From contig CAVTKL010000013.1 in the NCBI GenBank assembly GCA_963735345.1, positions 193,130 to 257,129 of the forward strand: a DNA stretch of 64,000 bases, written 5' to 3'. Numbering within the stretch: position 1 is the stretch's first letter; each line of letters begins with the position of its first letter. This document shows positions 1 to 57,499 of this stretch, in pieces. Below the pieces are notes generated by a model. The model was given only the letters and a program-made list of their open reading frames with translations. It did not search any database and had not been told where the DNA came from. Position numbers and translations under genes: made by a program. Source of the stretch: an uncultured Thermoleophilia bacterium. Lineage in GTDB: Bacteria > Actinomycetota > Thermoleophilia > UBA2241.

Positions 1-470
1 ATCATGGCCGCGAGCAGCACCAGCGAGACGAGCTCGAACGGCAACACGTACCGGTTGAACAAGAGAGAAGAGAGCTCCCTGACGCCCGGATTGAGCGTCT
101 TCTCGCCGATCGGGCCGATGTCCGCCGCGACGATCGTCACGCTGATCGCGGCGGCGGCGAGCGCGGCCAAGACGGCGGCGGCGATGGCTTGCCGGTTGAA
201 GAACTGCCGATACTCGCCGTCCTGCACCTCGGTGAGCATGATCGCGAAGAGGATGACGATCGAGATGGCCCCGACGTACACGAGGATCTGCATGATGGCG
301 ATCAGCTCGGCGTGCAGCAGCGCATAGGCGAAAGCCACGCCGAGGAAGCACAGCACCATCGACACGGCGGAGTACATGACCTTCTTGGAGGCGACGACGC
401 CGAGCGCGCACACGAGCACCCACGCGGCGACGATGACGAACAGCCAAGGATGGAAGTCGCCGCCCGGCAT
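1..470 (-). CDS. nuoJ: NADH-quinone oxidoreductase subunit J (NuoJ), 5' portion; the gene continues past the window start
   Basis: Reverse translation from 470 gives MPGGDFHPWLFVIVAAWVLVCALGVVASKKVMYSAVSMVLCFLGVAFAYALLHAELIAIMQILVYVGAISIVILFAIML..., a multi-TM NuoJ-like sequence. There is an AAGGAG RBS 7 nt upstream. The start overlaps the stop of the upstream gene (TGATG). Confidence 0.7.
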   Translation of the reverse strand, partial: MPGGDFHPWLFVIVAAWVLVCALGVVASKKVMYSAVSMVLCFLGVAFAYALLHAELIAIMQILVYVGAISIVILFAIMLTEVQDGEYRQFFNRQAIAAAVLAALAAAAISVTIVAADIGPIGEKTLNPGVRELSSLLFNRYVLPFELVSLVLLAAM

Positions 471-2953
471 CAGTCTCCTTCGCCGTCAAGGTCGACCGGA
501 TCGCCCTTGATCGGCTCCCAGACGAAGCCGAGACCGAGCTGGGCCTCAAGGACGTGGGGGACCAGGTCGGTGACCGTCTCGCGCAGCACGTCGACGGGCT
601 GTGGCTTCCGCACGTAGAGCGACTCGCCCGCCAGGGCCGTACGGCTGAATCCGGCGAGCTCGAAGAGGCTGGTCTGCTCCAAGGCGTTGTACGGGCAGAC
701 CTCGACGCACTCCCCGCAGAACATGCAGCGGCTCTCGTCGAGCCCATAGCGCTCGAGCTGCCGTGGATTGGTGACGATCGCCCCCGTCGGACACGTCTCG
801 GCGCACTTGCCGCACGACACGCAGCCGACCATCTGCAGAGGCAGGTTGTCGGCCGTACTGACGATCATGTCGAAGCCACGGCCCATGTTGTCGTAGCAGC
901 TCGCGCCCACCTCGCTCCGGCAGACGCGGACGCAGCGTCCGCAGTCGATGCAGCGGTTGGGCTCGCGCATGATGAAATCGTGACGGAAGTCGGCGGCGTA
1001 GTCGTGGGCGTCGCCGCCGTGGAAGCGGTTGCGGAACACCTCGTACTCGATGCCGTGCCGCTGCAGCCAGCAGCTTCCGTTGCTGGGGCAGTAGCAGTCG
1101 AGACAGCGCGCCGCACCCTCCACGGCGCTCGCTTCGCTGAAGCCGAGCTCGACTTGGGCGAAGGTCCCGCGCCGCTCCTCAGGGGCAAGCTTGGGCATCT
1201 CCGACGGCGGGCACGGCTTGCTCACGTCGGTGGTCATGTCGATGAACACCGGGGGGATCTCCGCCATGCGCGCGATGCGCGGGTCGATGTCGCCCTTGGC
1301 GGTCAGGGCGTCGACGAACGGCGTCGCCCGCAGACGCGCGAGCTGCTCGGAGACGGCCGCCATGTCGGCGCCACGCAGGAAGGCGTCGATGCTCCAGGCC
1401 GCCTTCTTGCCCTGCGCCACCGCCTGGATCACGGTCTGCGCGCCGAGCACCGCGTCACCGCCGGCGAAGACGCGCGGATCGGCGGTCTGATAGGTCCAGT
1501 CGTCCACCTTGATGGTGCGCCACTTGGTGCGCTTCACGCCCTGCGCCTCGCTGGTGCCGTCGAGGGCGGGGTAGTGGCCGATGGCGGCGATGACTTGATC
1601 GCAGGCGACGATGAACTCGGAGCCCTCCACGGGCACCGGACGGCGCCGCCCGGAGGCGTCTGGCTCGCCCAGCGCCATGCGCTGCATCTCGATGCCGGTC
1701 ACTCTGTCCGCGGCATGGCGGTGAAGACGGTCGGTGATGATCCTCACGGGTGCGCACAGCAGCTCAAGCTTGACGCCCTCTTCCTCGGCCTCGTCGACCT
1801 CGCTTTCGTGGGCGGGCATCTCCTTGCGCGACCTGCGGTACAGACAGATCACCTCCCTGGCGCCCCTGCGCACTGCGGTGCGACAGGCGTCCATGGCGGT
1901 GAAGCCGCCGCCGATGACGACGACCCTCTCGCCCACGTGCACATCGCCATCGCGCTCCAGGTCCCCGAGGAGACCAGCAGCGGAGACGACCCCGTCCGCG
2001 TCCTCGCCTGGGATGCCCAACGCGTTGCTGCCGCAGGCGCCCAACGCCAGGAAGACGGCGTCGTGGTCCTCGAGCAGGCTCTCGAGCTCATAGTCGACGC
2101 CGAGCCGGATGCCCGCCTGCAGCTTGACGCCCATGCGCCACAGGACATTGATCTCCTTGTCGAGGATCTCGCGCGGCAGACGATAGCTGGGGATGCCGTA
2201 GCGCAACATGCCGCCCGGTTTGGGCATCGCCTCGAAGATCGTGACTGCATGTCCCTCGAGCCGGGCGTAGAAGGCAGCGGCGAGGCCAGACGGCCCGCCG
2301 CCCACGATCGCCAGGCGCTTGCCTGAATCCGGCTTGGGATCGACCGGCAGCAGCAGCTCGCCGTCCTGCTCCTCATCGAGGCACTGGTCGGCCATGAAGC
2401 GGTGGAGCTGGCAGATCGTGATGGACTGGTCGACCAGCTGACGGCGACACGGTCCTTCGCAGGGCCGCGGGCAGACGCGCCCGAGGATGGCCGGGAAAGG
2501 CAGGTCCTCGCGCAGCTTGCGCACACCGTTCTTGTAGTCTTGGTGCGCCACGAAGTCGAGGAACTGCGGGATCTTGATGTGCGTCGGGCAGGCGTCGCGG
2601 CAGGGTGGCGTGCAGAACGAGTTGTGGCTGCTGAGGAGCAGTTCGAGGTACAGATGGCGCATGGCGCGCACTTTGTCGGTGTTGGTGCGCACGACCATGC
2701 CCGCCGCGACGGCGGTCGTGCAGCTCGTCATGACCTTGCGCGCGCCCTCGACCTCGACGATACACAGGCGGCAGGCGCCCGAGGCGGGAAGCCGCGGCTC
2801 GTAGCACAGGGTCGGGATGTGGATGCCGACGCGGCGCGCCGCCTCGAGGACGGTCTCGCCGGGACTGCAGACCACGTCCTGATCGTCGATCGTCACCACG
2901 ATCTCGGTGGATCGGGACTGACTGCGCACGGTCGTGTCGGTGGGAGCGGCCAT
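470..2953 (-). CDS. NuoG/HoxU-like Fe-S subunit lacking the molybdopterin-like domain. Domain order is NuoG-type 2Fe-2S ferredoxin, a complete glutamate-synthase-small-subunit (GltD/NfnB)-like NAD(P)H flavoprotein module, the NuoG His/Cys-cluster and 4Fe-4S region, and a C-terminal NuoI-like 2x[4Fe-4S] ferredoxin
   Basis: 827 aa. N-terminus: CSPGETVLEAARRVGIHIPTLCYEPRLPASGACRLCIVEV (NuoG 2Fe-2S). GltD motifs follow: CTPPCRDACPTHIKIPQF, ILGRVCPRPCEGPC and GKRLAIVGGGPSGLAAAFY...VVVIGGGFTAMDCARTA. NuoG-like segments: CLDCYCPSNGSCWLQ and RCIDCGRCVRVC...GFDMIVST...GCVSCGKCAETCPTGAI. Final RCMFCGECVEVCPYNAL...SLFELAGF...SLY resembles the NuoI C-terminus. The stop overlaps the nuoJ start. Confidence 0.85.
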   Translation of the reverse strand: MAAPTDTTVRSQSRSTEIVVTIDDQDVVCSPGETVLEAARRVGIHIPTLCYEPRLPASGACRLCIVEVEGARKVMTSCTTAVAAGMVVRTNTDKVRAMRHLYLELLLSSHNSFCTPPCRDACPTHIKIPQFLDFVAHQDYKNGVRKLREDLPFPAILGRVCPRPCEGPCRRQLVDQSITICQLHRFMADQCLDEEQDGELLLPVDPKPDSGKRLAIVGGGPSGLAAAFYARLEGHAVTIFEAMPKPGGMLRYGIPSYRLPREILDKEINVLWRMGVKLQAGIRLGVDYELESLLEDHDAVFLALGACGSNALGIPGEDADGVVSAAGLLGDLERDGDVHVGERVVVIGGGFTAMDACRTAVRRGAREVICLYRRSRKEMPAHESEVDEAEEEGVKLELLCAPVRIITDRLHRHAADRVTGIEMQRMALGEPDASGRRRPVPVEGSEFIVACDQVIAAIGHYPALDGTSEAQGVKRTKWRTIKVDDWTYQTADPRVFAGGDAVLGAQTVIQAVAQGKKAAWSIDAFLRGADMAAVSEQLARLRATPFVDALTAKGDIDPRIARMAEIPPVFIDMTTDVSKPCPPSEMPKLAPEERRGTFAQVELGFSEASAVEGAARCLDCYCPSNGSCWLQRHGIEYEVFRNRFHGGDAHDYAADFRHDFIMREPNRCIDCGRCVRVCRSEVGASCYDNMGRGFDMIVSTADNLPLQMVGCVSCGKCAETCPTGAIVTNPRQLERYGLDESRCMFCGECVEVCPYNALEQTSLFELAGFSRTALAGESLYVRKPQPVDVLRETVTDLVPHVLEAQLGLGFVWEPIKGDPVDLDGEGD

Positions 2954-2959
2954 GATCGT

Positions 2960-4873
2960 CTACTCGCCAGGGCCGGCGATCGCCGCCGCCTGCTCGCTGC
3001 CGGTCCAGACCTTGACCGCGCCGAACTTGCACACCTGCCGGCAGGTGTCGCACTTGATGCAGGCGCTGGTGTCGATGACGTGCGGCAGCTTCTTCTCGCC
3101 GGCGATGCAGGAGGTTGGGCATTTGCGGGCGCAGAGCGTGCAGCCGGTACAGGCGTCGGCGTCGATGTAGTACGTGATGAGCGCCTTGCAGCGACCGGCC
3201 GGGCAGCGCTTCTCGTTGATATGCGCCTCCAGCTCATCGTGGAAGTAGCGCAGCGTGGTGAGCACCGGGTTGGGCGCCGTGCCGCCGAGCGCGCACAGCG
3301 AGCCCTCGATGACGTACGCGGAAAGCTCCTCGAGCAGTTCGATGTCTCCCTCGCGCCCGTCGCCGGCGGTGATACGCATGAGCGTCTCGAGCATGCGCTT
3401 GGTGCCCAGACGGCAGGGCACGCACTTGCCGCACGATTCGTCCTGCGTGAACTGCAGGAAGTAGCGTGCCAGGTCGACCATGCAGGTGGTGTCGTCGACC
3501 ACGACCAGGCCGCCGGATCCGACGATCGCGCCCGAGGCGGCCAGCACCTCGTAGTCGACCTGCGTGTCGAGCATCTCGCCGGGCAGGCAACCGCCCGAGG
3601 GCCCGCCGAGCTGCACGGCCTTGAAGGAGCGGCCCGGCAGCATGCCCCCACCGATGTCGAAGATGATGTGCCGCAGCGTGGCGCCCATCGGCACCTCCAC
3701 CAGGCCGCCGTTGGCCACCTTGCCGGTGAGCGAGAAGATCTTGGTGCCGCGCGAGTCGCCCATGCCCATCTCGGCGAAGGCCTCGGCGCCGTGCCGCACG
3801 ATCCAGGGAATGTTGGCGAACGTCTCGACGTTGTTGATGTTGGTCGGCCGACCCCACAAGCCCGACACGGCCGGGAACGGCGGACGCGTGCGCGGCATGC
3901 CGCGCTTGCCCTCGATGCTGGCGATCAGGGCTGTCTCCTCGCCGCAGACGAACGCGCCGGCGCCCTCGCTGATGAACACGTCGAAGGCGAAGCCCGAGCC
4001 GAGGATGTCGGCGCCCAGCAGACCGCGCTCGCGCGCCTGGACGATGGCGGCGCCCAGGCGCTCGACGGCGAAGGGGTACTCGGCGCGCACGTAAACGTAG
4101 CCTTCGTGTGCGCCGATCGCGTACGCCGCGATCGTCATGCCCTCGAGGATCACATGTGGGTTGCCTTCGAGGACCGACCGGTCCATGAAGGCGCCCGGGT
4201 CGCCCTCGTCGGCGTTGCAGATGACGTACTTGATGTCGCCCTTGGCCTTGCGCGCGAAGTCCCACTTCGTCCCGGTGGAGAATCCCGCGCCACCGCGTCC
4301 GCGCAGGCCCGAACGCGCGACCACGGCGATGACTGCCTCGGGATCGTCGTCGGCGAGCGTCTCGGCCAGAGCGGCGTACCCGCCGTTCACGAGATAGTCG
4401 TCGATCGAGTAGGGATCGATCTTGCCGTTGAGCGCCAGCACGAGGCGACGCTGCCCTTTGTAGAAGGGTATGTCGGCCTCGTTGGCCAGCGCCTCGCCGC
4501 TCACGGGATCACGGTAGAGGATCTTGTCGGCCGCGCCCTCGACGCCTTGCACGCCCGCCGCGATGATGGCGGGCACGTCCTGCGGGCGCACGTGCGGGTA
4601 GAAGAGACCCTTGGGATGGACGACGACGATGGGGCCTTGCTCGCAGAAGCCGTGACAGCCCGTCTCGACGATGGGGACGGCATCGGTGAGGCCCAGGGCA
4701 GCCAGCTCCGTTTTGATCGCCTCACGCACCGCCAGGCGCCCCGAGGCGTGGCAGGCGGTGCCGGCGCAGATGCGCAGCTCGAGGGCGCCCTCGTGCGCCA
4801 CGACGCTCTCGGGTCGCAGAGCCCGGCACAGGGCTTCGTCCACAGCCGCGGCCCGTGGCGTGACGGGGCTCAC
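2960..4873 (-). CDS. nuoF: NADH dehydrogenase flavoprotein subunit of HydB/HoxF/FdsB type: NuoF core with an N-terminal thioredoxin-like [2Fe-2S] domain and a C-terminal 2x[4Fe-4S] ferredoxin domain
   Basis: 637 aa (canonical NuoF is ~440 aa). N-terminal CAGTACHASG...CHGFCEQGP (NuoE-like). Core GRGGAGFSTGTKW...ICNADEGDPGAF (FMN/NADH site), SCGKCVPCR (N3 cluster). C-terminal CTGCTLCARKCP...CIKCDTCRQVCKFGA. GTG start overlaps the upstream stop (GTGA). Confidence 0.9.
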   Translation of the reverse strand: MSPVTPRAAAVDEALCRALRPESVVAHEGALELRICAGTACHASGRLAVREAIKTELAALGLTDAVPIVETGCHGFCEQGPIVVVHPKGLFYPHVRPQDVPAIIAAGVQGVEGAADKILYRDPVSGEALANEADIPFYKGQRRLVLALNGKIDPYSIDDYLVNGGYAALAETLADDDPEAVIAVVARSGLRGRGGAGFSTGTKWDFARKAKGDIKYVICNADEGDPGAFMDRSVLEGNPHVILEGMTIAAYAIGAHEGYVYVRAEYPFAVERLGAAIVQARERGLLGADILGSGFAFDVFISEGAGAFVCGEETALIASIEGKRGMPRTRPPFPAVSGLWGRPTNINNVETFANIPWIVRHGAEAFAEMGMGDSRGTKIFSLTGKVANGGLVEVPMGATLRHIIFDIGGGMLPGRSFKAVQLGGPSGGCLPGEMLDTQVDYEVLAASGAIVGSGGLVVVDDTTCMVDLARYFLQFTQDESCGKCVPCRLGTKRMLETLMRITAGDGREGDIELLEELSAYVIEGSLCALGGTAPNPVLTTLRYFHDELEAHINEKRCPAGRCKALITYYIDADACTGCTLCARKCPTSCIAGEKKLPHVIDTSACIKCDTCRQVCKFGAVKVWTGSEQAAAIAGPGE

Positions 4874-5628
4874 TCGACGCCCTCCCGCCGACGCAGGTCG
4901 ATGACTGTCTTGCGCGCCTTGTCCGGGGTCATGCGGCCGAGCGTCTCGCTCTCACCCACGCGCACCACCGGCGCCAGCGCGCAGGCGCCGACGCAGCTCA
5001 CGGCCTCCAGGGTGAAGAGGCCGTCCTTGGAGGTCTTGCCGACCTCCACGCCGATCACCTCCGAGAAGGCCGCGGTGATGAGCGGCGCCCCCGCCACGTG
5101 ACAGGCCGTGCCCTGGCAGACAGTGATGATGTGCTTGCCCACAGCCGAGAGGCGGAACTGATTGTAGAAGCTGACGACGCCGTAGATCTGCGAGAGCGAC
5201 ATCCCGGTCTGCAGGGCGATCTCGTGGATGGCCACGCGCGGCAGGAAGCCGTACACGTCCTGCGTGTTCTGCAGGATGGCGATGAGGCCGGTGCCGCGCT
5301 CGTAGTAGTCGTCGAGCACCGGGCGCAGCAACTGGAGGTCGATGCCGGGCTGCGCGTCCAGACGGGCGCGCGAGATGCGCGCCACGTTGGGCGCCGGGAG
5401 ATGGTACTTGCTGGAGTGCTCGACGCGGATCACCTGCACGGGGCAGTTGGTCTCGCACAGCGTGCACGAGCGACAGCGCGGCGCGCCGGTCTGCGGGTCG
5501 ACGACGACGCTGAAGAGGCCGCGGCTGCGCTCGGGCAGCGTCTCGCGCTGCTCGGGATACTGCACGGTGAGCTTCTTGGTCGGCAGGTGGCGCAGCGTCG
5601 TGCGCATGGCTTTGAGCATGCCGAGCAT
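4870..5628 (-). CDS. In-frame fusion of the N-terminal half of NuoI (one CxxCxxCxxxCP motif) with a complete NuoE/HydC-like thioredoxin-fold [2Fe-2S] domain
   Basis: Starts MLGMLKAMRTTLRHLPTKKLTVQYPEQRETLPERSRGLFSV...CRSCTLCETNCP (NuoI N-terminal signature). It then runs directly into LLRPVLDDYYERGTGLIAILQNTQDVYGFLP...SQIYGVVSFYNQFRL...ITVCQGTACHVAG...VSCVGACALAPVV (NuoE). The ATG overlaps the nuoH stop (TGATG) and the stop overlaps the nuoF-like GTG. Confidence 0.8.
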   Translation of the reverse strand: MLGMLKAMRTTLRHLPTKKLTVQYPEQRETLPERSRGLFSVVVDPQTGAPRCRSCTLCETNCPVQVIRVEHSSKYHLPAPNVARISRARLDAQPGIDLQLLRPVLDDYYERGTGLIAILQNTQDVYGFLPRVAIHEIALQTGMSLSQIYGVVSFYNQFRLSAVGKHIITVCQGTACHVAGAPLITAAFSEVIGVEVGKTSKDGLFTLEAVSCVGACALAPVVRVGESETLGRMTPDKARKTVIDLRRREGVE

Positions 5629-6749
5629 CAGGCGCTCATGACCGACACGCGGGACCGCTGCCGGCGCAGCCGCCACTTGAGGACGGGATCGAGCAGCAGG
5701 ACGAACGCCAGGAGCGCGAGCCAACTGAAGACGGCCAAGCCGTACTTCCACTGCGGCACCCAGAGCATGACGGCGCCGGTGGCCAGGATGTTGAGCAGGC
5801 CGAGGGGGATGAGGATCTTCCAGGCGAAGGCCATGAGCTGGTCGACCTGCAGCCGCGGGAGAGAGAGCCTGATCCAGACCAGCATGAACACCAGGACGTA
5901 CGTCTTGACGAGGAACCAGACGAGCGGCATCCAGGAGACGCCCCAGAAGCTGACCGCGTCCTCGAAGGGGCCGTGCCACCCGCCGAAGAACAGCGTCACG
6001 GTCACCATCGACATGATCGTCAGGCCCGCGTACTCGTTGAGGAAGAACATACCGAAGCGCATGCCTGAGTACTCCGTGCCGTAGCCGGCGACGAGCTCGG
6101 ATTCGGACTCCGGCAGGTCGAACGGGCCACGGTTCAGCTCGGCGATCGAGGCGACGTAGAAGATGAAGAACGTGAACGGCGCATAGAAGGCGATCCACTG
6201 GTAACCGGCCTGCGCCGCGACGACGTCGTCGAGGCGCAGCGAGCCGACGACCATGGCGACGACCAGCAGGGCGAGGATCATCGGGATCTCGTAGCTGATC
6301 ATCTGCGCGGCGCCGCGCAGGGCGCCGACCAGTGAGTACTTGTTGTTCGACGACCAGCCGCCGAGCAGGATCGCCAGTGTCGTGAATCCGGTGATGGCGA
6401 CGATGAAGATGAGGCCGACGTCGAGGTCGGTGGCCACCAGGCCCTTCGCGTAAGGCACGACACTCTGGATCGCCACGGCGCCGACCATGACCATGATCGG
6501 CGCCAGGGTGAAGAGGTAGGGGTCGGCCAGCGTGGGGCGGAAGTCCTCCTTGCCCATCATCTTGATGGCGTCGGCGACACTCTGCAGCATGCCCTGGGGC
6601 CCGGTACGGTTGGGGCCCAGACGATCCTGCATGAGGGCCAGGACGCGGCGCTCGTAGACGATGTTGACGAGCGCCGACACCATCACGACCGTATAGGCGA
6701 TGAGCACGAAGAGGACGGCGCGCAGGACGCCCATGAGGAGGTCGCTCAT
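5628..6749 (-). CDS. nuoH: NADH-quinone oxidoreductase subunit H
   Basis: MSDLLMGVLRAVLFVLIAY...GPNRTGPQGMLQSVADAIKMMGKEDF...EYSGMRFGMFFLNEYA...; polytopic membrane protein. Start chosen at the internal Met that gives an ATGA overlap with the nuoD stop. Confidence 0.9.
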   Translation of the reverse strand: MSDLLMGVLRAVLFVLIAYTVVMVSALVNIVYERRVLALMQDRLGPNRTGPQGMLQSVADAIKMMGKEDFRPTLADPYLFTLAPIMVMVGAVAIQSVVPYAKGLVATDLDVGLIFIVAITGFTTLAILLGGWSSNNKYSLVGALRGAAQMISYEIPMILALLVVAMVVGSLRLDDVVAAQAGYQWIAFYAPFTFFIFYVASIAELNRGPFDLPESESELVAGYGTEYSGMRFGMFFLNEYAGLTIMSMVTVTLFFGGWHGPFEDAVSFWGVSWMPLVWFLVKTYVLVFMLVWIRLSLPRLQVDQLMAFAWKILIPLGLLNILATGAVMLWVPQWKYGLAVFSWLALLAFVLLLDPVLKWRLRRQRSRVSVMSA

Positions 6750-7960
6750 CGGTCGATGCCCCCGAGGACGAGGTCCATGCTGCCCGATATCGCCACGGCG
6801 TCGGCGATCTTGTTGCCGCGCAGGAGCTTGGGGAAGATCTGCAGGTTCATGAAGCAGGGGTCGCGGAACTTGAGGCGGTACGGGTAGCGCGACCCGTCGC
6901 TGATGATGTAGGTGCCGTACTCGCCGCGCGGGTTCTCCTGCGCCGTGTAGCACTCGCCGGGGGGCGGCGTGATGGCGTAGGGGGCGCGCAACGAGCCGTT
7001 CTGGACCGCCCCCTTGGGCAACATGTCGAGCGCCTGCTCCACGATCTTCACGGACTGGCGCATCTCGTCCATGCGCACCTGGTAGCGATCGTAGACGTCG
7101 CCGTGCCGGCCCAGCGGCAGCTCGAAGTCGAGCTCCGGGTAGACGGAGTACGGGCGCGTGCGGCGCAGGTCGTGAGCGACCCCCGAGGCGCGCGCGTTGG
7201 GCCCGGTGATGGCGTAGTCGACCACGTCCTGCTGGGTGATGACGCCCTTGCCCATGCAGCGCTGCAGAAAGATCGCGTTGCGCTGCACCAGGGCCTCGTA
7301 CTCGTCGATGAGTCTGGGCATCTTGCGCATGACCTCGCGGCAGTCCTCGACCCAGCCGTCCGGCAGGTCGTAGCGGACCCCGCCGAAGCGGAAGTAGTTG
7401 AACATCATGCGCGCGCCGCTCACCTCCTCGAGCAGATCGAGGATGGGCTCGCGATCACGGAACATGTAGAAGAGCATGGCCGTCCCCAGCGGCGCCAGAT
7501 CGGCGGTGAACGTGCCGACGGCGACCAGATGGCTGGCGATGCGGTTGAGCTCGGCCATGATCACGCGGATGAACTCCGCCCGCCGCGTCGGCCGTATTCC
7601 GGCCAGCCTCTCGACGGTCATGACGTAGCCCCACTCGCAGTTCATCCCCGCCAGGTACTCCGTGCGATCGACGATGGGGATGTACTGGTAGTAGGTGCGC
7701 TTCTCGGCGATCTTCTCTTTGCAGCGGTGGAGATAGCCGACCACCGGGATCACGTCCTTGACGAGCTCTCCGTCAAGGGTGACGACGAGCCGCAGGACTC
7801 CGTGCGTCGAGGGATGCTGCGGCCCCATGTTGACGATGACCTCGTTGAACGTGAGGCCCTCCAGGTTCGAGCCCTCGCCGAGGGCGTACGCCTCGTCGAT
7901 GCGCCGCTGCGCGAGCTTGACGGCCTCGTCGGGAAGGGCTGTGGCGAACTGGTCAGACAT
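6746..7960 (-). CDS. nuoD: NADH-quinone oxidoreductase subunit D
   Basis: 404 aa; NMGPQHPSTHGVLRL..., NCEWGYVMTVERL..., RxxDPCF... Confidence 0.92.
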   Translation of the reverse strand: MSDQFATALPDEAVKLAQRRIDEAYALGEGSNLEGLTFNEVIVNMGPQHPSTHGVLRLVVTLDGELVKDVIPVVGYLHRCKEKIAEKRTYYQYIPIVDRTEYLAGMNCEWGYVMTVERLAGIRPTRRAEFIRVIMAELNRIASHLVAVGTFTADLAPLGTAMLFYMFRDREPILDLLEEVSGARMMFNYFRFGGVRYDLPDGWVEDCREVMRKMPRLIDEYEALVQRNAIFLQRCMGKGVITQQDVVDYAITGPNARASGVAHDLRRTRPYSVYPELDFELPLGRHGDVYDRYQVRMDEMRQSVKIVEQALDMLPKGAVQNGSLRAPYAITPPPGECYTAQENPRGEYGTYIISDGSRYPYRLKFRDPCFMNLQIFPKLLRGNKIADAVAISGSMDLVLGGIDR

Positions 7961-8447
7961 GCGGGTGGTTCTCGATGAGGTCGACGTAGTCCTTGCGCAG
8001 CGGATACCCGACGAAGTCGTCCTTGAGCAGGATGCGGCGCAGGTCGGGATGATCCGTGAAGCGGATGCCGAACATGTCCCACGCCTCGCGTTCGAGCCAC
8101 TCGGCGGCCGGCCACACGTCGCAGACGGTCACCACCTCGGCGTCCGTGGACGGCAGCTCCACGTACAGCTGGAAGTACGTGTTGGTCTTCCAGCTGTAGA
8201 GGTGGTACACGCTTTCGAGACGCGTGACCCGGTCGACCCCGGCGATCCAATTGAGCGTCTCATAGCCGATCTCGGCTTCAGCCTTGAGCCGGCGCGCCAC
8301 GTCCTTGAGCTTCGCCTTGTCGCAACGCGCCACGACCGTGTCCGGTTCCTGCACGCGCACGTCCTCGAGGTCGCCGGCGAAAGCGGCCGCCAGACGCTCG
8401 GCGATCGCATCCATCGCCATGAGGTTCGCGCCGATCTCCAGCGCCAT
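7953..8447 (-). CDS. nuoC: NADH-quinone oxidoreductase subunit C
   Basis: 164 aa; ...YHLYSWKTNTYFQLYVELP...EREAWDMFGIRF... Confidence 0.88.
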   Translation of the reverse strand: MALEIGANLMAMDAIAERLAAAFAGDLEDVRVQEPDTVVARCDKAKLKDVARRLKAEAEIGYETLNWIAGVDRVTRLESVYHLYSWKTNTYFQLYVELPSTDAEVVTVCDVWPAAEWLEREAWDMFGIRFTDHPDLRRILLKDDFVGYPLRKDYVDLIENHPHV

Positions 8448-8452
8448 GCGCG

Positions 8453-9001
8453 TCAGCCCCTTTCGGCGTCGGTCGCCGACGGCAGGATCGGCACGAAGGA
8501 GTGCCGCTCGATCTTCTTCTGCAGTTCGAGAAGGCCCTGGAACAGGGCCTCAGGGCGGGGCGGGCAGCCGGGGATGTAGACATCGACCGGTACCACCTTG
8601 TCGACCCCGTTGACCACGTTGTAGCCATCGTAGAACGGGCCCCCGCTGTTGGCGCAGGCGCCCATGCTCATGACCCACTTGGGCTCGGACATCTGATCGT
8701 AGAGCCGCTTGAGCACGGGAGCCATCTTCTCGTTGAGCGTACCGGCGACGATCATCAGGTCGCACTGGCGCGGGGTCGGCCGGAAGATCTCCATGCCGAA
8801 GCGCGCGATGTCGTAGCGGGCGAACCCGGAGCTGAGCATCTCGATGGCGCAACAGGCGAGCCCGTACTGAAACGGGAAGACGGAGTGCGACCGCGCCCAG
8901 CTGAAGATGAGATCGGTGGTCGTGGTGATGACGTTGGGCTGCTGGAAGTGCTCGAGCTTGGGGTAGCGGATCCGGGCTTGACGGGAGCTGTCGGCGCTCA
9001 T
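8453..9001 (-). CDS. nuoB: NADH-quinone oxidoreductase subunit B
   Basis: Starts at the internal Met MSADSS... (ATGA overlap with nuoA). [20 protein letters not shown] and PGCPPRPEA are the N2 cluster ligand motifs. Confidence 0.9.
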
Positions 9002-9366
9002 GCCCACTCGAGGGCACCCTTGCGCCACGCATAGACCAGGCCGAAGCCCAGCACGGCGACGAAGATCACCATCTCGACGAACCCCGCCGTCCCCAGGCCG
9101 CGGAACACGAGCGTCCACGGGAAGAGAAACACGGCTTCGACGTCGAACACGAGAAAGAGCAAGCCGAACACGAAGTAGCGCACGGCGAACGGCGACCAAG
9201 GGCGCCCGACCGGGGGGATCCCGCACTCGTAGGACGCGAGCTTCTCAGGCGTGAGGTGCTCCGGGTTCACCAGCTTCGAGAACAGAAGGATGAGCACGAC
9301 GAGGGCACCGCCCGCAGCGATGAAGAGCCCGATGTACACCCAATTGATGAGGTATGCGTCAGTCAT
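8998..9366 (-). CDS. nuoA: NADH-quinone oxidoreductase subunit A
   Basis: 122 aa; ...[53 protein letters not shown]... Confidence 0.9.
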
Positions 9367-9614: not shown

Positions 9615-10172
9615 GTGAACATCGGCCCCATGGAGATCGCGATCGTGCTCATCCTCGCGCTCCTCGTCTTCGGCCCCAAGCGCCTGCCACAGGCGGGCCG
9701 CAGTTTGGGCCAGGCGCTGCGTGAGCTCAAGAAGGCGACGTCATCGGCGCGCTCCGAGCTCGGTCTCGACGACGTCGCCGCGGATGTCAAGGATCTCAAG
9801 TCCAGCCTCACCATCGACCTCAAGGCGACCGACGCGCCCGCACCGCCGCGGCCCGTCGACAGCCCCGCCGGAATGGCCGCTGCCGCTACGACCGCGGCCG
9901 TCGTCGACGTGCTGCCCGCCGCCGCGGCCCCGCCGGAGGCGGAGGCCGCGACCGCTGAGGCACCGGACGAGACCGAGCCCGCCACCCCGGACACGGCCGA
10001 GCTCGTCGCCCCGGAGGAGACCGAGCCCGTCGCCCCGGACACGGCAGCCGCGCCCGCCGAGGCCCCCGAAGCCGTGGTGGGACCGGAGGCGGAGGCGACC
10101 CTCGCCACGGAGACCGCGCCGCCGGAGCCCGAAGACGCATCTACGACACCCTCCGGGCAAAGCGCGCTCTGA
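9615..10172 (+). CDS. tatA: Twin-arginine translocase TatA/TatB-family protein with a long acidic Ala/Pro/Glu-rich C-terminal tail
   Basis: MNIGPMEIAIVLILALLVFGPKRLPQAGRSLGQALRELKK is the TatA/E signature. The tail carries repeated ETEP(A/V)(T/A)PDTA segments. Confidence 0.85.
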   Translation: MNIGPMEIAIVLILALLVFGPKRLPQAGRSLGQALRELKKATSSARSELGLDDVAADVKDLKSSLTIDLKATDAPAPPRPVDSPAGMAAAATTAAVVDVLPAAAAPPEAEAATAEAPDETEPATPDTAELVAPEETEPVAPDTAAAPAEAPEAVVGPEAEATLATETAPPEPEDASTTPSGQSAL

Positions 10173-10180
10173 GGCGCTCT

Positions 10181-10972
10181 GTGGCGGCCTCCCCCGAAGA
10201 CACCTTCACCGTCCTCGAACACCTGGACGAACTGCGCAAGCGCATGTTCTGGGTGATCGTGGTGCTGATCGCCGGCGTCATCGGGGCGGCCATCTTCAAC
10301 GACCGCCTCTTCGATCTGCTGCTCTATCCGCTCAATCAGGTGTCGGGCCTCGATGTCGACTCATACAAGATCATCACGCTGAGCCCGACTGAGCCATTCA
10401 TGGTCAGCCTCAAGGTCTGGGTCGTGGCGAGCCTGCTCATCACCTCTCCGTTCCTCATCTGGCAACTCTGGGCGTTCGTCGGGCCGGCGTTCACGAGCAC
10501 CGAGAAGCGCTATTTCTATCCCGTGGTGCTGGCGACCATCGCCCTGTTTCTCGGCGGGGTGGCCTTCGGCTACCTCATCGTGCTTCCCAAGGGCCTCTCG
10601 TTCCTGCTCAACTTCGGCGGTTCGACCTTCAACGTGCAGAACCGCGCCTCGGAGTACTTCACCTTCGTGGCTCTCTTCATCCTCGCCTTCGGCGCCATCT
10701 TCGAGCTGCCGGTCATCCTCGTGCTGCTTGCCAAGGTCGGGGTGATCGACGACAAGTTCCTGCGCAAGAACCGCCGCTATGCGATCGTCATCAGCGCCCT
10801 CGTGGCGGCCATCCTCACCCCGGGCCAGGATGCGTTCTCGATGGTCGCGATGCTCGTCCCTCTCCTGGTCCTCTACGAGGTCTCGATTCCTATCGCGCGT
10901 CTCGTGCAGCCCAAGCCGGAGGGATCAGCAGGCGCGAAAGACGCGGACGACCTCGCCGCGGGGGCGACCTGA
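10181..10972 (+). CDS. tatC: Twin-arginine translocase subunit TatC
   Basis: 263 aa, 6-TM; LEHLDELRKRMFWVI...; adjacent to tatA. Confidence 0.88.
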   Translation: MAASPEDTFTVLEHLDELRKRMFWVIVVLIAGVIGAAIFNDRLFDLLLYPLNQVSGLDVDSYKIITLSPTEPFMVSLKVWVVASLLITSPFLIWQLWAFVGPAFTSTEKRYFYPVVLATIALFLGGVAFGYLIVLPKGLSFLLNFGGSTFNVQNRASEYFTFVALFILAFGAIFELPVILVLLAKVGVIDDKFLRKNRRYAIVISALVAAILTPGQDAFSMVAMLVPLLVLYEVSIPIARLVQPKPEGSAGAKDADDLAAGAT

Positions 10973-11122: not shown

Positions 11123-13348
11123 ATGGCTGATCAGGAGCGACATCGCGACACCCCTGAAGAGCTCCGGCGCCAGCATCGGCAGCGCGAACGACGCCGGCCC
11201 AAGCCGCGCAAGCGGGTGTGGCTCAGGGTCATCTTCCTTGTGTTCGCGCTACTCGTCATCGCCGCGATCGGGATGGGCGCCGGCGGCATCTTCGCCCTCT
11301 CGCGCAACTTGCCGTCCCTCGAGAATCTCGAGCGCCGACCGAACGCCGTCAACACGACGATCTACGACCGCAACGGCGTGAAGTTCGCCGAACTGCACGG
11401 CGCCGAGAACCGTGTCATCGTCGCGAGCACCAAGATCCCCGACGCGATGAAGCAGGCGACGGTCGCCACCGAGGACGCGCGCTTCTACACCCATCACGGC
11501 GTCGACATGCAGGGCATCGCCCGCGCCCTCGTCGAGAACCTGCGGGCCGGCGGCATCGTCCAGGGCGGTTCGACCATCACCGAGCAGTACGTCAAGAACG
11601 CCTATGTGGGCAACGAGCGCACGTACACACGCAAGCTGCGCGAGGCGGTGCTCGCGTGGGAACTGGAAGACAAGTGGTCGAAAGACAAGATCCTCACCGA
11701 GTACCTCAACACCGTCTACTACGGCGCCGGCGCCTACGGCGTCGAGGCGGCGGCGCGCACCTACTTCCACAAGCGCGCCTCACAGCTCACGCTGGAGGAG
11801 TCGGCCCTGCTCGCGGCGCTGCCGAAGTTCCCGACCCGCTACTCTCCGACGACCGACCCCAAAGAGGCCAAGAAACGCCGCAACATCGTCCTCGACCTCA
11901 TGGCCACGCACGGCTACATCACCGCCGAGAAGGCGGCCTCCGCCAAGAAGCGCAAGCTGGGCGTCTACAAGCACCCGCCCTCGCTGAACAACAGTCTGGC
12001 CGACTACTTCACCGACTACGTGACGCGCGTGCTCACCAAGCGCTACGGCACGCGCCAGGTGTTCGAGGGCGGTCTCAAGGTCTATACCAGCATCGACTTG
12101 AAGTGGCAGCAGGAAGCTATCGACATCATCAAGGGCACCACCGACCCACTGAACTTCGGATTCAAGCCTTCAGCGGCACTGGTGGCGATCGACCCCAAGA
12201 ACGGCTACATCCGCACGATGGTCGGCGGTCTCGACTACAAGAAGCAGAAGTTCAACCTGGCCTGGCAAGCCAAGCGCCAACCGGGGTCGTCGATGAAGCC
12301 CTTCGTGCTCACCGCCGCCGTGCTCCAGGGTATGAACCCTGACACCACGTACTACTCGTCACAGAGCCCGATCGTCATCCCGATGGGGTACGCGGCGCCG
12401 TGGATCGTGAACGGTGACGGCCCCGGCGGGCCGGAGACCGTGTCGCAGGCCACGACCATCTCCGACAACGTCGTCTACGCTCAACTCTCAGTCGATGTCG
12501 GCCCTGCGAACACGGCCGCGATCGCCCGCAAGATGGGCATCACCAGCAAGCTCGATGAGGTACCCTCCATCACGCTCGGAACCTCCGTCGTGAGCCCGCT
12601 CGAGATGGCCGACGCCTACGCCACGCTGGCGAGCGGCGGCATCCATCACCCACCGCAGGCGATCGTCAAGGTCGTGCTGCCCAACGGCCGCGTCGACTGG
12701 AGGCCCAAGACGAAGGGCAAGCGCGTTCTTCCGGCCGGCGTCGCCTCAGTCGTCACACAGTGCCTCGAGCGCGCCGCCACGAGCGGTACCGGCGCGCCCT
12801 CCGGGGCGTACTACCCGTACCCGCGCGCCGGCAAGACCGGCACCACCGAGAACGGCTGGGACGTCTGGTTCTGCGGCTACACGCCACAACTCGCCGCCGC
12901 GGTCTGGATGGGCGACTCGGAGAAGAACTCGCCCATGGACGGTGCTTACGGCGGAACGTACTGCGCGCCGATGTGGGCCAAGTTCTTCGCCAACGCGTTC
13001 GCAAACCAGGCGCACCCGGGGTTCACATACACACCCTGGTCCTTCAGCCCTTGGGACGGGGCATACTCCAAGATGTCGCCGTCCGCCTCACCGTCACCGT
13101 CGGGGAGTGGCGCGCCGACGCCGACGCCGACACCGACCAAGACGATCAAGCCGACACCGACCAAGACCCCGACGCCGACACCGACGCCGACACCGACCAA
13201 GACCCCCACGCCGACCCCGACGCCGACCCTCTCCGCGCCGGCGCGCGGCGAGGGCAAGGCCATCGCCGTCGAGTCGCGGACGGGTGACGGCTCGACCGGG
13301 ATCACGGGAGCCTTCGCCGGCTGGCTCTCGAGCCTCTTCGGCTTCTGA
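11123..13348 (+). CDS. Class A penicillin-binding protein (PBP1A): GT51 transglycosylase plus transpeptidase, with a C-terminal Pro/Thr repeat tail
   Basis: EDARFYTHHGVD...GGSTITEQYVKN (GT51); SSMKPF (SxxK); PT/PTK repeats at the C-terminus. Confidence 0.9.
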   Translation: MADQERHRDTPEELRRQHRQRERRRPKPRKRVWLRVIFLVFALLVIAAIGMGAGGIFALSRNLPSLENLERRPNAVNTTIYDRNGVKFAELHGAENRVIVASTKIPDAMKQATVATEDARFYTHHGVDMQGIARALVENLRAGGIVQGGSTITEQYVKNAYVGNERTYTRKLREAVLAWELEDKWSKDKILTEYLNTVYYGAGAYGVEAAARTYFHKRASQLTLEESALLAALPKFPTRYSPTTDPKEAKKRRNIVLDLMATHGYITAEKAASAKKRKLGVYKHPPSLNNSLADYFTDYVTRVLTKRYGTRQVFEGGLKVYTSIDLKWQQEAIDIIKGTTDPLNFGFKPSAALVAIDPKNGYIRTMVGGLDYKKQKFNLAWQAKRQPGSSMKPFVLTAAVLQGMNPDTTYYSSQSPIVIPMGYAAPWIVNGDGPGGPETVSQATTISDNVVYAQLSVDVGPANTAAIARKMGITSKLDEVPSITLGTSVVSPLEMADAYATLASGGIHHPPQAIVKVVLPNGRVDWRPKTKGKRVLPAGVASVVTQCLERAATSGTGAPSGAYYPYPRAGKTGTTENGWDVWFCGYTPQLAAAVWMGDSEKNSPMDGAYGGTYCAPMWAKFFANAFANQAHPGFTYTPWSFSPWDGAYSKMSPSASPSPSGSGAPTPTPTPTKTIKPTPTKTPTPTPTPTPTKTPTPTPTPTLSAPARGEGKAIAVESRTGDGSTGITGAFAGWLSSLFGF
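13116..13233 (+). repeat. Tandem CCGAC(N)CCGAC-type repeats encoding a (PT)n/PTK low-complexity tail within the PBP gene
   Basis: Direct inspection: ccgacgccgacaccgaccaagac... is reiterated. Confidence 0.7.
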
Positions 13349-13424: not shown

Positions 13425-14771
13425 TCAGAGAGCCGTGCGCCGGTCGACGACGCGCACGGCTTTGCCCTCAGAACGCTGGATCGTGCGCGGCTCCTTCAGC
13501 TTGACCGCCACCTGGATGTTGAGCACGCTGAAGATCCGCGACTGCACCTTTCTCTGGAAGCGTTCGAGGTCCCCCATGGTCTCCGGGAAGACGCCCTCGC
13601 CCACTTCCACCCAGACCTCGATGACGTCCAGGAAGCCCTCGCGATCGACCACGATCTGATAGTGCGGCTCGATCTCCGGTATGCTCATCAGGACTTCCTC
13701 GATCTGACTCGGGAAGACGTTGACGCCTCTGATGATGAGCATGTCGTCGCTGCGCCCGATGGGCTTGCTCATGCGCAGGGACGTGCGCCCGCAGGCACAC
13801 GGGCTCGAGTCCAGACTGCAGAGGTCGCGCGTACGGTAGCGGATGAGCGGCTGCGCCTGACGCGAGAGGGTCGTGAAGACGAGCTCGCCGACCGTTCCCT
13901 CGGGCAGAGGCTGCAGCGTCTCGGGGTCGATGATCTCGGCAAGGTAGTGGTCTTCGTTCACGTGCATGCCGGCCTTGCAGAGGCATTCGAAGGCCACGCC
14001 CGGGCCGCCCATCTCAGAGAGACCGTAGATATCGAGAGCATCGATGCCGAGCGCGGCCTCGATGAGCGTACGCATCTCGTTGGTCCAGGGCTCGGCGCCG
14101 TGGAAGCCCACGCGGATCGGCAGATCCTCCGGCCGCAGGCCGCGGTCGCGGGCGGCGTCGCCCAGATACATCGCGTACGACGGCGTGCAGCTGAGCGCCG
14201 TGGCGCCGAAGTCGCGCATGATCTTGAGTTGACGCTCGGTGTTGCCCCCCGAGATCGGCACCACCGTGCAGCCCAGCCTCTCGGCGCCGAAGTGGAGGCC
14301 GAGGCCGCCCGTGAAGAGCCCATAACCGTAGGCGTTCTGAAGCAGATCGCCCGGCTGGATCCCTCCGGCGGCCAGCGTACGCGCGATCAGATCACCCCAC
14401 GTGTCGATGTCGGCGCGAGTGTACCCGACGGTGGTCGGGTTCCCGGTCGTGCCCGATGAGGCGTGTACTCGCACGATCTGCGCGCGCGGCCGGGCGAACA
14501 TGCCGAACGGGTAGTGGTCGCGCAGGTCGGTCTTGGTGGTGAAGGGCAGACGCGAGACATCGGCGCGCGAGGCCACGTAGTCGGGGGCGATCCCGGCCTG
14601 CTCCAGGCTCTTGCGATAGAACGGTACGTTCGCGCGGGCGTTCTCGAGGACGGCCCGCAGACGCTCCATCTGCACCTCGGCGAGCGCCTCACGCGGCAGT
14701 GTCTCGGCCTCCGGCTCCCACATCAAGCCGCCGCAGAGGTCGGGGAGGAGATGCTCGTCGTGAGCGCTCAC
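13425..14771 (-). CDS. paaK: Phenylacetate-CoA ligase family protein (PaaK / arylacetate-CoA ligase)
   Basis: ...VPFYRKSLEQAGIAPDYVASRADVSRLPFTTKTDLRDHYPFGMFA...SSGTTGNPT...; ATGA overlap with the upstream ACT gene. Confidence 0.85.
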   Translation of the reverse strand: MSAHDEHLLPDLCGGLMWEPEAETLPREALAEVQMERLRAVLENARANVPFYRKSLEQAGIAPDYVASRADVSRLPFTTKTDLRDHYPFGMFARPRAQIVRVHASSGTTGNPTTVGYTRADIDTWGDLIARTLAAGGIQPGDLLQNAYGYGLFTGGLGLHFGAERLGCTVVPISGGNTERQLKIMRDFGATALSCTPSYAMYLGDAARDRGLRPEDLPIRVGFHGAEPWTNEMRTLIEAALGIDALDIYGLSEMGGPGVAFECLCKAGMHVNEDHYLAEIIDPETLQPLPEGTVGELVFTTLSRQAQPLIRYRTRDLCSLDSSPCACGRTSLRMSKPIGRSDDMLIIRGVNVFPSQIEEVLMSIPEIEPHYQIVVDREGFLDVIEVWVEVGEGVFPETMGDLERFQRKVQSRIFSVLNIQVAVKLKEPRTIQRSEGKAVRVVDRRTAL

Positions 14772-15181
14772 AGCGCGCGCACCTCCTCGTCGCTCAGCAG
14801 TGTCACCTTGCCGCGCAGCAAGTCGATGGCGCGGTCGATGTCGTGCACCGCGAAGCAGATGTTCTGGAAGGAGATGCTGTAGAGATAGTCGATGGAGACG
14901 CCGGCGGCGGCAAGCGTGTCGAGCACCTCCGCGAGGCCGCCCGGCTGGTCAGGCACGCGCACGCACAGCACCTGCGAGAAGTGGGTCGTGAAGCCGGCAT
15001 CGTGCAGGAGCGCCCGCGCGGTTGCGGGATCGGTCACGATGAGCCGCAGAATGCCGTACTCGGCGGCTTCCGTGGTGGAGAACCCGCGGATGTTGATGCC
15101 CGCCTTCCCCAGAAGGTCGGCCACCTCAGCGAGACGGCCACTTCGATTCTCGAGAAACAGGGTGAGCTGTGTGACCTTCAC
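14768..15181 (-). CDS. ACT-domain protein (small regulatory partner common in ior/paaK clusters)
   Basis: Only the C-terminal 137 aa of the 340-aa ORF is protein-like (VKVTQLTLFLENRSGRLAEVADLLGKAGINIRGF...). The GTG start overlaps the iorB stop. Confidence 0.65.
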   Translation of the reverse strand: MKVTQLTLFLENRSGRLAEVADLLGKAGINIRGFSTTEAAEYGILRLIVTDPATARALLHDAGFTTHFSQVLCVRVPDQPGGLAEVLDTLAAAGVSIDYLYSISFQNICFAVHDIDRAIDLLRGKVTLLSDEEVRAL

Positions 15182-15771
15182 TGGCTGACCTCCTCGCTGC
15201 CGAAGGCGCGCCCAAGAGCGAACGCCCGCTGATTGACGGTCAGGATCTTCGCCGGGACGGCGGCCGCGAGGCCGCGCTGCCAGGACTCCTCGCTGAAGGG
15301 CAGCACAGCGCTGGCCGCCCCAAGAAGTGCGACATTGGCGGCCTTCTCCGTGCCGGCCTGCCGCGCCAGGTCCGTGGCGTCGACCGCGATGACGCGCACG
15401 CCGCGTTGCTCGGCGGCCGCGGCGAGATCCTCTGGGTACTCGGCCTCGCGCCGCAGGACGCAGCCCGGAGCGATGCGGGTGGTCACGGCGCAGACGAGCG
15501 TCCCGTGCGGCCCCAGGAGGTCGAGACCGCGATGCCCCTCCAGCAACTCGACACCGATGACCACGTCGGCGTGACGCGAGACGGGCGACCACACATGATC
15601 GCCGAAACGCACGGAGCTGAGCACGCTGCCGCCGCGCTGCGACATGCCCTTGACCTCGCTGGCCTTCACGTCGAAGCCCTCGGCGGCCGCGGCCGCGGCA
15701 AGGACGGCGGAAGCCAGGAGGATACCCTGCCCGCCGACGCCGACCAGCGAGACCGTCGTGACCCCGCTCAT
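15178..15771 (-). CDS. iorB: Indolepyruvate:ferredoxin oxidoreductase beta subunit
   Basis: MSGVTTVSLVGVGGQGILLASAVLAAAAAAEGFDVKASEVKGMSQRGGSV...; ATGA overlap with iorA. Confidence 0.85.
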   Translation of the reverse strand: MSGVTTVSLVGVGGQGILLASAVLAAAAAAEGFDVKASEVKGMSQRGGSVLSSVRFGDHVWSPVSRHADVVIGVELLEGHRGLDLLGPHGTLVCAVTTRIAPGCVLRREAEYPEDLAAAAEQRGVRVIAVDATDLARQAGTEKAANVALLGAASAVLPFSEESWQRGLAAAVPAKILTVNQRAFALGRAFGSEEVSQ

Positions 15772-17594: not shown

Positions 17595-17640
17595 TCGGCT
17601 GCCAGCCGGCCGACGCCGACCCGCCTTCCCAGCCCGTCCT

Positions 17641-57494: not shown

Positions 57495-57499
57495 GCGCC

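Follow-up and report, generated by a model that had tools for sequence, protein, structure and literature searches.

The question raised by this locus is where its nuoI has gone. The window, by which we mean the whole stretch of 64,000 nucleotides (nt) analysed here (contig CAVTKL010000013.1 of assembly GCA_963735345.1, from an uncultured soil actinobacterium of the class Thermoleophilia, forward-strand positions 193,130 to 257,129), carries an operon for the respiratory complex I whose 13 genes do not include a separate nuoI. The motifs that characterize NuoI are found instead on two proteins of this operon, the 252-amino-acid (aa) I'::E protein, which is NuoE-like, and the 827-aa G* protein, which stands in the place of NuoG, with the gene of the F subunit between them. 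Profile and structure-database comparisons show that nuoI is, as far as sequence can tell, broken within the loop that connects its two cluster-binding motifs, with a three-gene cassette of the Stn/NfnABC type lying between the halves. We propose that the split nuoI flanks the cassette and that its two halves, I' and I'', reassemble and so attach the E-F-G* module to an otherwise 11-subunit complex I, a reading to which we assign a probability of about three in four. The features concerned are the following, with the source of each assignment in parentheses:

5395..5628, minus strand: I', the NuoI N-terminal half, residues 1-78 of the 252-aa I'::E (TIGR01971, PDB)
4870..5316, minus strand: NuoE/HydC/StnA-like thioredoxin-fold [2Fe-2S] domain, residues ~105-252 of I'::E plus stop codon (Pfam PF01257)
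2960..4873, minus strand: F, 637 aa, NADH/flavin mononucleotide (FMN) subunit of the HydB/StnB/NfnB (BfuB) type (Pfam, PDB matches)
470-2953, minus strand: G*, complete open reading frame (ORF), 827 aa (ORF list)
776..2953, minus strand: StnC/NfnA-like part of G*, residues 1-726 (Pfam, PDB colinearity)
473..769, minus strand: I'', the NuoI C-terminal half, G* residues 729-827 (TIGR01971, PDB)

By these assignments G* carries the C-terminal half of NuoI only and the N-terminal half sits on NuoE. I' contains the NuoI N-terminal segment as well as TVQYPE (nt 5551-5568) and RSRG (nt 5518-5529), and it holds the first cluster-binding motif, CRSCTLCETNCP (nt 5440-5475). Residues 12-78 match positions 2-66 of the 121-position NuoI model TIGR01971 (E 8.5e-13, 48.0 bits), and all 33 of the PDB matches of the first 100 aa of I'::E are NuoI, NdhI or TYKY chains, aligned over their first half only, which bears out the view of a first-pass annotation of the sequence that an N-terminal NuoI fragment is fused to NuoE. 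A linker of ~30 residues leads from I' to the NuoE-like domain, which Pfam recognizes as PF01257 at residues 109-246 (E 2e-41).

The second half is found at the end of G*. Nucleotides 470-886 of the minus strand encode G* residues 690-827 and the stop codon, and contain the CxxCxxCxxxCP motif twice, with a tail like that of NuoI, "FELAGF...SLY"; the motif and tail strings quoted for this segment in the first-pass annotation are all present. Together with a further motif upstream the region reads, all on the minus strand:

920-952, minus strand: m1, CIDCGRCVRVC, residues 668-678
788-823, minus strand: m2, GCVSCGKCAETCPTGAIV / CVSCGKCAETCP, residues 711-722
between m2 and m3: spacer of 20 residues, TGAIVTNPRQLERYGLDESR
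692-727, minus strand: m3, RCMFCGECVEVCPYNALEQTSLFELAGF / CMFCGECVEVCP, residues 743-754
614-667, minus strand: NuoI-type tail, LFELAGFSRTALAGESLY, residues 763-780

I'' is made up of RYGLDESR, m3 and the NuoI-type tail, followed by an acidic extension specific to the clade. When the last 138 aa of G* were aligned with the NCBIfam profiles, TIGR01971 was the top model (E 7.9e-16, 57.8 bits), its best stretch being positions 69-115 of 121, matched by G* residues 729-775; the claim that the C-terminus of G* resembles NuoI beyond chance is upheld by this result. NuoI models still ranked first when m3 and the tail were searched alone (E 2e-11 to 6.5e-11) and when residues 729-827 were used (positions 71-115, generic ferredoxin models reaching only ~23 bits), and they were also first for the equivalent pieces from a Ktedonobacter and a Limnocylindria-like genome. 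A grouping with generic ferredoxins, which the first-pass annotation had named as the outcome that would speak against it, was not seen as far as tested, and the domain scores with NuoI. In the PDB, m3 and the tail match mainly NuoI, NdhI and TYKY chains, always over their second half; the few other matches are polyferredoxin-type chains (FwdF/MvhB multi-motif ferredoxins and HdrA), reached through their repeated motifs. A chance match of generic ferredoxin motifs is rejected, as the ranking is specific to NuoI and extends into the flanking regions that hold no cysteines.

As to the extension itself (473-610, minus strand, G* residues ~782-827), the pattern DPLRETVxDLVPHVxD...GWxWxPIKDDPxxLD is common to the G* proteins of Thermoleophilia and gave no family match; the G* proteins of Chloroflexota carry other C-terminal extensions, some of them rich in His and Gly.

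What did not survive is the assignment of a whole NuoI dicluster, i.e., a complete 2x[4Fe-4S] domain, to the end of G*. The 66-aa piece that holds m1 and m2 scores 55.7 bits with the A6 family of [FeFe]-hydrogenases and 50.3 bits with HoxU, and only 26 bits with NuoI, and the region is colinear with StnC (8oh5_C), 9bov_A and NfnA. By score and colinearity m1 and m2 form a two-cluster domain of the HydA/HoxU/StnC type, and only m3 with the tail is NuoI, its C-terminal half. As m2 is already taken by m1, m3 would be left without a partner inside G*; the motif of I'' sets in after exactly 20 residues from m2, the last motif of this HydA-type dicluster of G* itself.

The partner of m3 may be found on I'. 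The two halves are complementary on TIGR01971, I' covering positions 2-66 and I'' positions 69-115 of 121, as the earlier proposal of a NuoI distributed over two polypeptides that flank an insert would have it, and on solved NuoI chains they do not overlap and leave 5-12 loop residues uncovered: they cover 7-73 and 86-129 of Thermus thermophilus Nqo9 (2fug_9), 23-79 and 92-133 of Escherichia coli NuoI, and 30-97 and 103-140 of bovine TYKY (5lc5_I). Joined in silico, I' and I'' match TIGR01971 in one stretch (positions 2-115 of 121, 103.3 bits), with NuoI or NdhI making up all of the nine top-ranking families; the rejoined Ktedonobacter and Limnocylindria-like versions reach 101.7 and 90.1 bits, respectively. 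The subunit had also been described as permuted, a description that we drop: the halves keep their N-to-C order, and permutation of NuoI is ruled out.

It could be argued that m2 and m3 make up a complete, self-contained NuoI-like 2x[4Fe-4S] domain on G*, I' being only a structural anchor or a relic. The 20-residue spacing is typical of clostridial-type diclusters, Pfam sees the pair as an ordinary dicluster within one chain (Fer4_7, residues 711-757, 49 bits), and phmmer aligns m2 and m3 with both motifs of full-length NuoI chains. We consider this explanation unlikely, since m1 and m2 belong together by score and colinearity, so that pairing m2 with m3 leaves m1 without a partner, and since the native m2-m3-tail segment reaches 57.8 bits on the NuoI model in two stretches as compared to 103.3 bits in one stretch for I' and I''. 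Moreover, the four cysteines of I' are kept in 62 of 63 loci of two phyla and in a cassette linked to pyruvate:ferredoxin oxidoreductase (POR), which is difficult to reconcile with a relic.

The cassette that separates the halves, ~4.6 kb of E-F-G* coding sequence, is by its matches of the Stn/NfnABC (Bfu) type rather than a canonical NuoEFG, because F is closest to HydB, StnB and NfnB and possesses their extra domains. The best PDB matches of F (7t2r_B, 9bov_B, HydB, StnB 8oh5_B and NfnB) score 734-816 bits versus 397 bits for Nqo1, and Pfam finds Complex1_51K, NADH_4Fe-4S, 2Fe-2S_thioredx (residues 28-105) and Fer4 (568-619), i.e., a thioredoxin-like [2Fe-2S] domain added at the N-terminus and a 2x[4Fe-4S] domain added at the C-terminus. 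Schut et al. 2022 (PMC9304861) regard such extra clusters as characteristic of the Bfu enzymes that bifurcate. Inside a nuo operon the HydB/StnB-type extra domains of F (2960-4873) are unusual. G* carries an N-terminal [2Fe-2S] domain (nt 2678-2908, minus strand), an inserted GltD/NfnB-like FAD/NAD(P)H domain with two [4Fe-4S] clusters (nt 1370-2614, minus strand) and an all-Cys N5-like motif (nt 1070-1105, minus strand), with Pfam matches to Fer2_4, Fer4_20 and Pyr_redox_2. It is colinear with 9bov_A over residues 19-751 (624 bits), with residues 3-702 of StnC 8oh5_C over 17-756 (526 bits) and with NfnA 9n5u_A over 17-728 (499 bits), the PDB alignments stopping at chain position ~700. In StnC a formate-dehydrogenase/NuoG-like domain follows at residues 683-1172 (PMC10482914). 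G* is without this C-terminal domain and ends at residue 827 with I'', the NuoI half taking the place of the inactive formate-dehydrogenase-like domain of StnC and NfnA. The first-pass suggestion that an E-F-G* cassette was inserted into an ancestral nuoI stands in part: insertion into the nuoI of an 11-subunit operon would be expected to produce just this order, H-[I'E]-F-[G*I'']-J, whereas the inserted cassette is not NuoEFG.

The remaining nuo genes of the window, which like the cassette are all on the minus strand, are arranged as follows:

8998-9366, minus strand: nuoA (ORF list)
8453 to ~9000, minus strand: nuoB (ORF list)
7953-8447, minus strand: nuoC (ORF list)
6746-7960, minus strand: nuoD (ORF list)
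5628 to ~6750, minus strand: nuoH (ORF list)
1..470, minus strand: start of nuoJ, which runs off the window (translation MPGGDFHPWLFVIV; Oxidored_q3 (NuoJ) lies directly after G* in related loci)

The identities of the upstream genes are also backed by Pfam for the same order in one related locus (L001) and by tblastn synteny in related loci. No E, F or G gene lies between nuoD and nuoH in the ORF list of the window. By the ORF coordinates the start codon of I'::E is positioned over the stop codon of nuoH, and the ATG of nuoJ (470-468) shares one base with the stop codon of G* (472-470). Because the genes abut or overlap by one base at the H/I'E, I'E/F and G*/J junctions, a single operon fits. 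No other nuoI-like sequence was found by tblastn in the 64-kb window, with sequences for E. coli NuoI and T. thermophilus Nqo9 that served only as probes for further nuoI copies.

The arrangement is not peculiar to this genome. A scan of one genome per species yielded 79 loci, drawn from the best 80 of 556 confirmed relatives. The order A-B-C-D-H-[I'::E]-F-[G*::I'']-J-K-L-M-N is found in Thermoleophilia and in Limnocylindria-like Chloroflexota, a fourth, more divergent clade has nuoJ and nuoK directly after G*::I'', and Ktedonobacteria carry a detached four-gene cluster, nuoB-[I'::E]-F-[G*::I'']. More than 120 close homologues of the I'::E fusion have lengths of 251-255 aa, the few with a named source being from Thermoleophilia. 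The carriers include cultured bacteria (Ktedonobacter racemifer DSM 44963, Thermogemmatispora aurantia, Thermosporothrix hazakensis and Dictyobacter), and others are the chromosome of Ktedonobacterales bin_006 (CP126532.1) and Thermoleophilia metagenome-assembled genomes with long contigs. The CxxCxxCxxxCP motif is intact in 62 of 63 I' copies, the exception (L013) being apparently frameshifted, and m1, m2, the exact 20-residue spacer and m3 are kept in all 83 G* copies. As rejoined sequences of different clades are only 32-39% identical, we take the kept cysteines as support for purifying selection acting on both halves. An intact nuoI, which the first-pass annotation had expected to find in related genomes were it mistaken, was not found by tblastn in the window or in the 10-kb flanks of the 79 related loci. 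No close unsplit homologue of the rejoined sequence was found among the 120 matches listed of 182, and a homologue search with the C-terminus of G* brought up mainly truncated gene calls. When a library of 1.84 billion representatives was searched with G*, about two dozen 50%-identity clusters matched at E <= 1e-30, of which the best-scoring extend through m3.

Could the operon nevertheless encode two enzymes that work independently, one of them a soluble transhydrogenase resembling Stn and the other an 11-subunit complex that obtains its NuoI from elsewhere, the NuoI-like ends being remnants or an artefact? The search for nuoI covered the window and the 10-kb flanks rather than whole genomes, the solved Stn and Nfn enzymes are soluble tetramers (PMC10482914; PMC11829005), and frameshifts do exist in metagenome-assembled genomes (L013; P0129, P0143, P0155). 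However, the same fused ORFs recur in ~60 independent assemblies, among them the isolate genomes of K. racemifer DSM 44963 and T. aurantia, the motif cysteines are all conserved at 32-39% identity between clades, the genes at the junctions abut or overlap by one base, and G* is without the formate-dehydrogenase-like domain that mediates tetramerization in Stn and Nfn (PMC10482914). We regard two separate enzymes as very improbable, and an assembly artefact is rejected in view of the ~60 independent genomes. Several metagenome assemblies are frameshifted at this place, with the I' motif broken in L013 and with gene calls that run G* into nuoJ; the frameshifts in L013, P0129, P0143, P0144 and P0155 look like assembly errors rather than biology.

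Further support for the split NuoI acting as a unit comes from a different enzyme. A 1049-aa relative of G* (P0195) is 40% identical to it over residues 11-777, m3 and the following "FE" included, and continues beyond the G*-like part into a PorB-like thiamine pyrophosphate (TPP) domain. The locus L083 (5052-13150 of contig ena:ERZ27247713:k141_190188) has the order porG-porD-porA-[half-ferredoxin::E]-F-[G*::m3::PorB]. Its E protein is 50% identical to I'::E of the window from residue 26 on and has kept one CxxCxxCxxxCP motif; the NuoI N-terminus is absent, the NuoI tail is also lost, and a complete PorD is encoded separately. The L083 halves match NuoI models best, at positions 32-62 and 69-115, and when rejoined cover 33-115 in one stretch. 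As both halves travel with the cassette into a pyruvate-oxidoreductase operon, a different enzyme context, this lends independent support to the notion that they work as a pair, and it hints that the split dicluster may be a portable connector, a wiring device that can be reused.

The same locus suggests a reverse history with the same mechanism, in which the split ferredoxin was the ancestral connector of a Stn-like cassette and was recombined with nuoI only later. Both halves are indeed present in the POR operon cassette, fused there to PorB and without the NuoI N-terminus. Yet NuoI models, rather than those of PorD or of generic ferredoxins, match the POR-linked halves best. Outside its own family G* is next closest to StnC/formate-dehydrogenase-like proteins of 1000-1260 aa, which make up the lower-scoring library clusters and match through m1-m2 only, and the halves of the nuo operons lie exactly at the place of nuoI, between H and J. 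This history appears to us decidedly improbable. The most likely origin of the arrangement is the insertion of the cassette into, or its recombination with, the nuoI of an A-B-C-D-H-I-J-K-L-M-N operon, which probably happened once and was followed by spread between phyla.

How would such a split subunit operate? Ferredoxin folds of the 2x[4Fe-4S] kind, that of Nqo9 among them, bind each cluster through three cysteines of one motif and a fourth, the "CP" cysteine, of the other. As every cluster draws on both motifs, each would be ligated across both polypeptides if I' and I'' reassemble, non-covalently, into one NuoI fold that holds clusters N6a and N6b. We infer that the reassembled halves staple the E-F-G* module onto NuoB, NuoC, NuoD and NuoH of the 11-subunit complex I. 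Electrons would be supplied by NADH, through FMN in F, and probably by NADPH, through FAD in the GltD-like domain of G*, and would pass from the clusters of G* through m1/m2 to N6a/N6b, to N2 in NuoB and to quinone (menaquinone). For Stn and Nfn the corresponding cluster branch has been described as a dead end without function (PMC10482914; PMC11829005), and here this branch is likely to be the exit towards quinone. Confurcation with ferredoxin by the Thermoleophilia enzyme, on the lines proposed for Nuo-Bfu (PMC9304861), is speculative.

Several points limit the case for reassembly. All the NuoI scores lie below the curated TIGR01971 cutoff of 113.05 bits, be it I' (48.0), the last 138 aa of G* (57.8) or the rejoined sequence (103.3), and the AlphaFold2 models speak neither for nor against it, their confidence being too low for use, with a mean predicted local distance difference test (pLDDT) of 32.6 for G* residues 600-827 (alignment of nine sequences) and of 35.8 for the rejoined halves (single sequence). 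On sequence alone an intramolecular pairing of m2 with m3 is possible, and a further nuo operon with an unbroken nuoI may exist elsewhere in the genome, the negative result covering the window and the 10-kb flanks. NuoE is located far from NuoI in canonical complex I, and therefore the peripheral arm would have to be arranged differently or the ~30-residue linker be stretched. F and E also vary by clade, being Bfu-type in Thermoleophilia, with a plain F in Chloroflexota (440-443 aa, without the N-terminal [2Fe-2S] and C-terminal 2x[4Fe-4S] domains) and an E without [2Fe-2S] in Ktedonobacteria. In the latter (L050 6172-6912, K. racemifer DSM 44963) I'::E retains the NuoI half together with the helical N-terminal portion of NuoE, the thioredoxin-like [2Fe-2S] domain with its cysteines being absent, and F is a plain 443-aa protein without the Bfu-type extras. 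As F and E differ among the clades, bifurcation chemistry, if there is any, is not a shared property. Lastly, Ktedonobacteria have orphan or tandem G* copies without an adjacent I'E (L026, L035, L038). Dictyobacter aurantiacus has three tandem 802-aa G* genes after B-I'E-F (L035 2938-13296), L046 has two G* genes, and L026, L038 and L057 have further extra copies, some of them orphans with unrelated neighbours, which in L038 are an NB-ARC/TPR regulator and an ABC-F ATPase; m1, m2 and m3 are all kept in the extra copies. In the complete genome of Ktedonobacteria brp13 (AP024096.1) an orphan G* is all that was seen.

Taking the nuo and por contexts together, we tentatively put forward a wider reading, whose chances we place somewhat below even, that the split NuoI-derived ferredoxin fold is a two-piece 'plug' with cross-chain clusters that wires a Stn-type NADH/NADPH module into different enzymes. 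These would be the proton-pumping complex I of Thermoleophilia and Chloroflexota, acting as an NAD(P)H:menaquinone oxidoreductase, and the pyruvate:ferredoxin oxidoreductase of another lineage, with a module that is possibly ferredoxin-confurcating in Thermoleophilia.

Some neighbouring genes may be recorded here. Divergently upstream of nuoA lie genes for TatA-like and TatC proteins and for a class A penicillin-binding protein whose long tail is rich in Pro and Thr (9615-10972 and 11123-13348, both plus strand), and L001 has the same neighbours. Close to the operon, 13425-18008 (minus strand) holds a TPP enzyme of 746 aa that combines POR_N and TPP_enzyme_C domains, an IorA-like 2-oxoacid:ferredoxin oxidoreductase, together with an ACT-domain protein and a phenylacetate-CoA-ligase-like AMP-binding enzyme, a combination that suggests a ferredoxin-linked aromatic amino-acid pathway. 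A 720-aa ORF at 57125-59287 (plus strand) joins beta-like electron-transfer flavoprotein (ETF) and ETF_alpha FAD-binding domains and is either a fused flavoprotein or two neighbouring genes that the ORF list runs together.

In the usual view complex I arose from an 11-subunit core to which an electron-input module was added, and this raises the question of how such modules became attached. The present operons would make attachment visible in gene structure, as a Stn/Nfn-type module that was joined by breaking NuoI and fusing the halves to subunits of the module. Should the 'plug' reading be true, an 11-subunit ancestor of complex I recruited an input module independently, and the junctions can still be seen. 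Should the halves reassemble, N6a and N6b can be ligated across two chains, a variant of complex I exists without the C-terminal scaffold of NuoG, and Thermoleophilia and Chloroflexota, which are abundant in soil, may use a proton pump to pass electrons from NADPH, in addition to those from NADH, to the quinone pool. Since cultured Ktedonobacteria (Ktedonobacter racemifer, Thermogemmatispora, Dictyobacter and Thermosporothrix) carry the system, purification, electron cryo-microscopy and enzymology are feasible.

Among known systems, a complex I with a non-canonical input module is of a known kind. Nuo-Bfu is predicted to be a 14-subunit (A-N) complex I in which BfuABC, with a NuoG-like BfuA, replaces NuoEFG; its hosts are Geobacter, Deferribacteres, Planctomycetes and Nitrospirae, and Mbh-Bfu and Por-Bfu complexes have been predicted as well (Schut et al. 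2022, PMC9304861). The text and one supplement of that paper do not mention Thermoleophilia or Ktedonobacteria. The two systems have in common an NADH module of the HydABC/Bfu type that takes the place of NuoEFG and is encoded in the middle of the nuo cluster. They differ in that 14 subunits imply a separate NuoI and that Nuo-Bfu has no GltD domain and no split and belongs to other phyla, whereas the operon of the window has 13 genes, no separate nuoI and a G* without the C-terminal domain of NuoG. Neither a split NuoI nor this type of operon turned up in the searchable literature, subscription-only papers aside, and both are apparently undescribed.

The module itself is closest to StnABC of Sporomusa ovata (8oh5/8oh9; PMC10482914) and NfnABC of Caldicellulosiruptor (PMC11829005); the NfnA and NfnB chains of PDB 9n5u appear to be of the same type as the latter. 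G* (residues 17 to ~750), StnC and NfnA are colinear and share the layout of a [2Fe-2S] domain, a GltD-like FAD/NADPH domain and HydA-type clusters, F resembles StnB and NfnB including the extra cluster domains, and E resembles StnA and NfnC. The differences are the NuoI half in place of the inactive formate-dehydrogenase-like domain, the other half on E, and the location in a nuo operon. L083, which may be a counterpart of the predicted Por-Bfu (PMC9304861), contains the same E-F-G* family with a half-ferredoxin on E and m3 on G*, and differs from the window in the fusion of G* to PorB, the loss of the NuoI N-terminus and tail, and the separate, complete PorD.

The halves resemble NuoI/Nqo9/TYKY (NDUFS8; N6a and N6b) in possessing, in order, the N-terminal segment, TxxYPE, RxRG, the two CxxCxxCxxxCP motifs and the FE(L/M) tail, and in being encoded between nuoH and nuoJ. 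Unlike the usual NuoI, a single chain of ~140-200 aa, they are two polypeptides, each fused to another subunit, with the inter-motif loop missing and with scores under the family cutoff. The fusion of NuoC with NuoD in E. coli (PMC3144371) is a precedent for tolerated rearrangement of the boundaries between complex I core subunits; there whole subunits are fused, whereas here a small Fe-S subunit is broken inside its cluster-binding fold.

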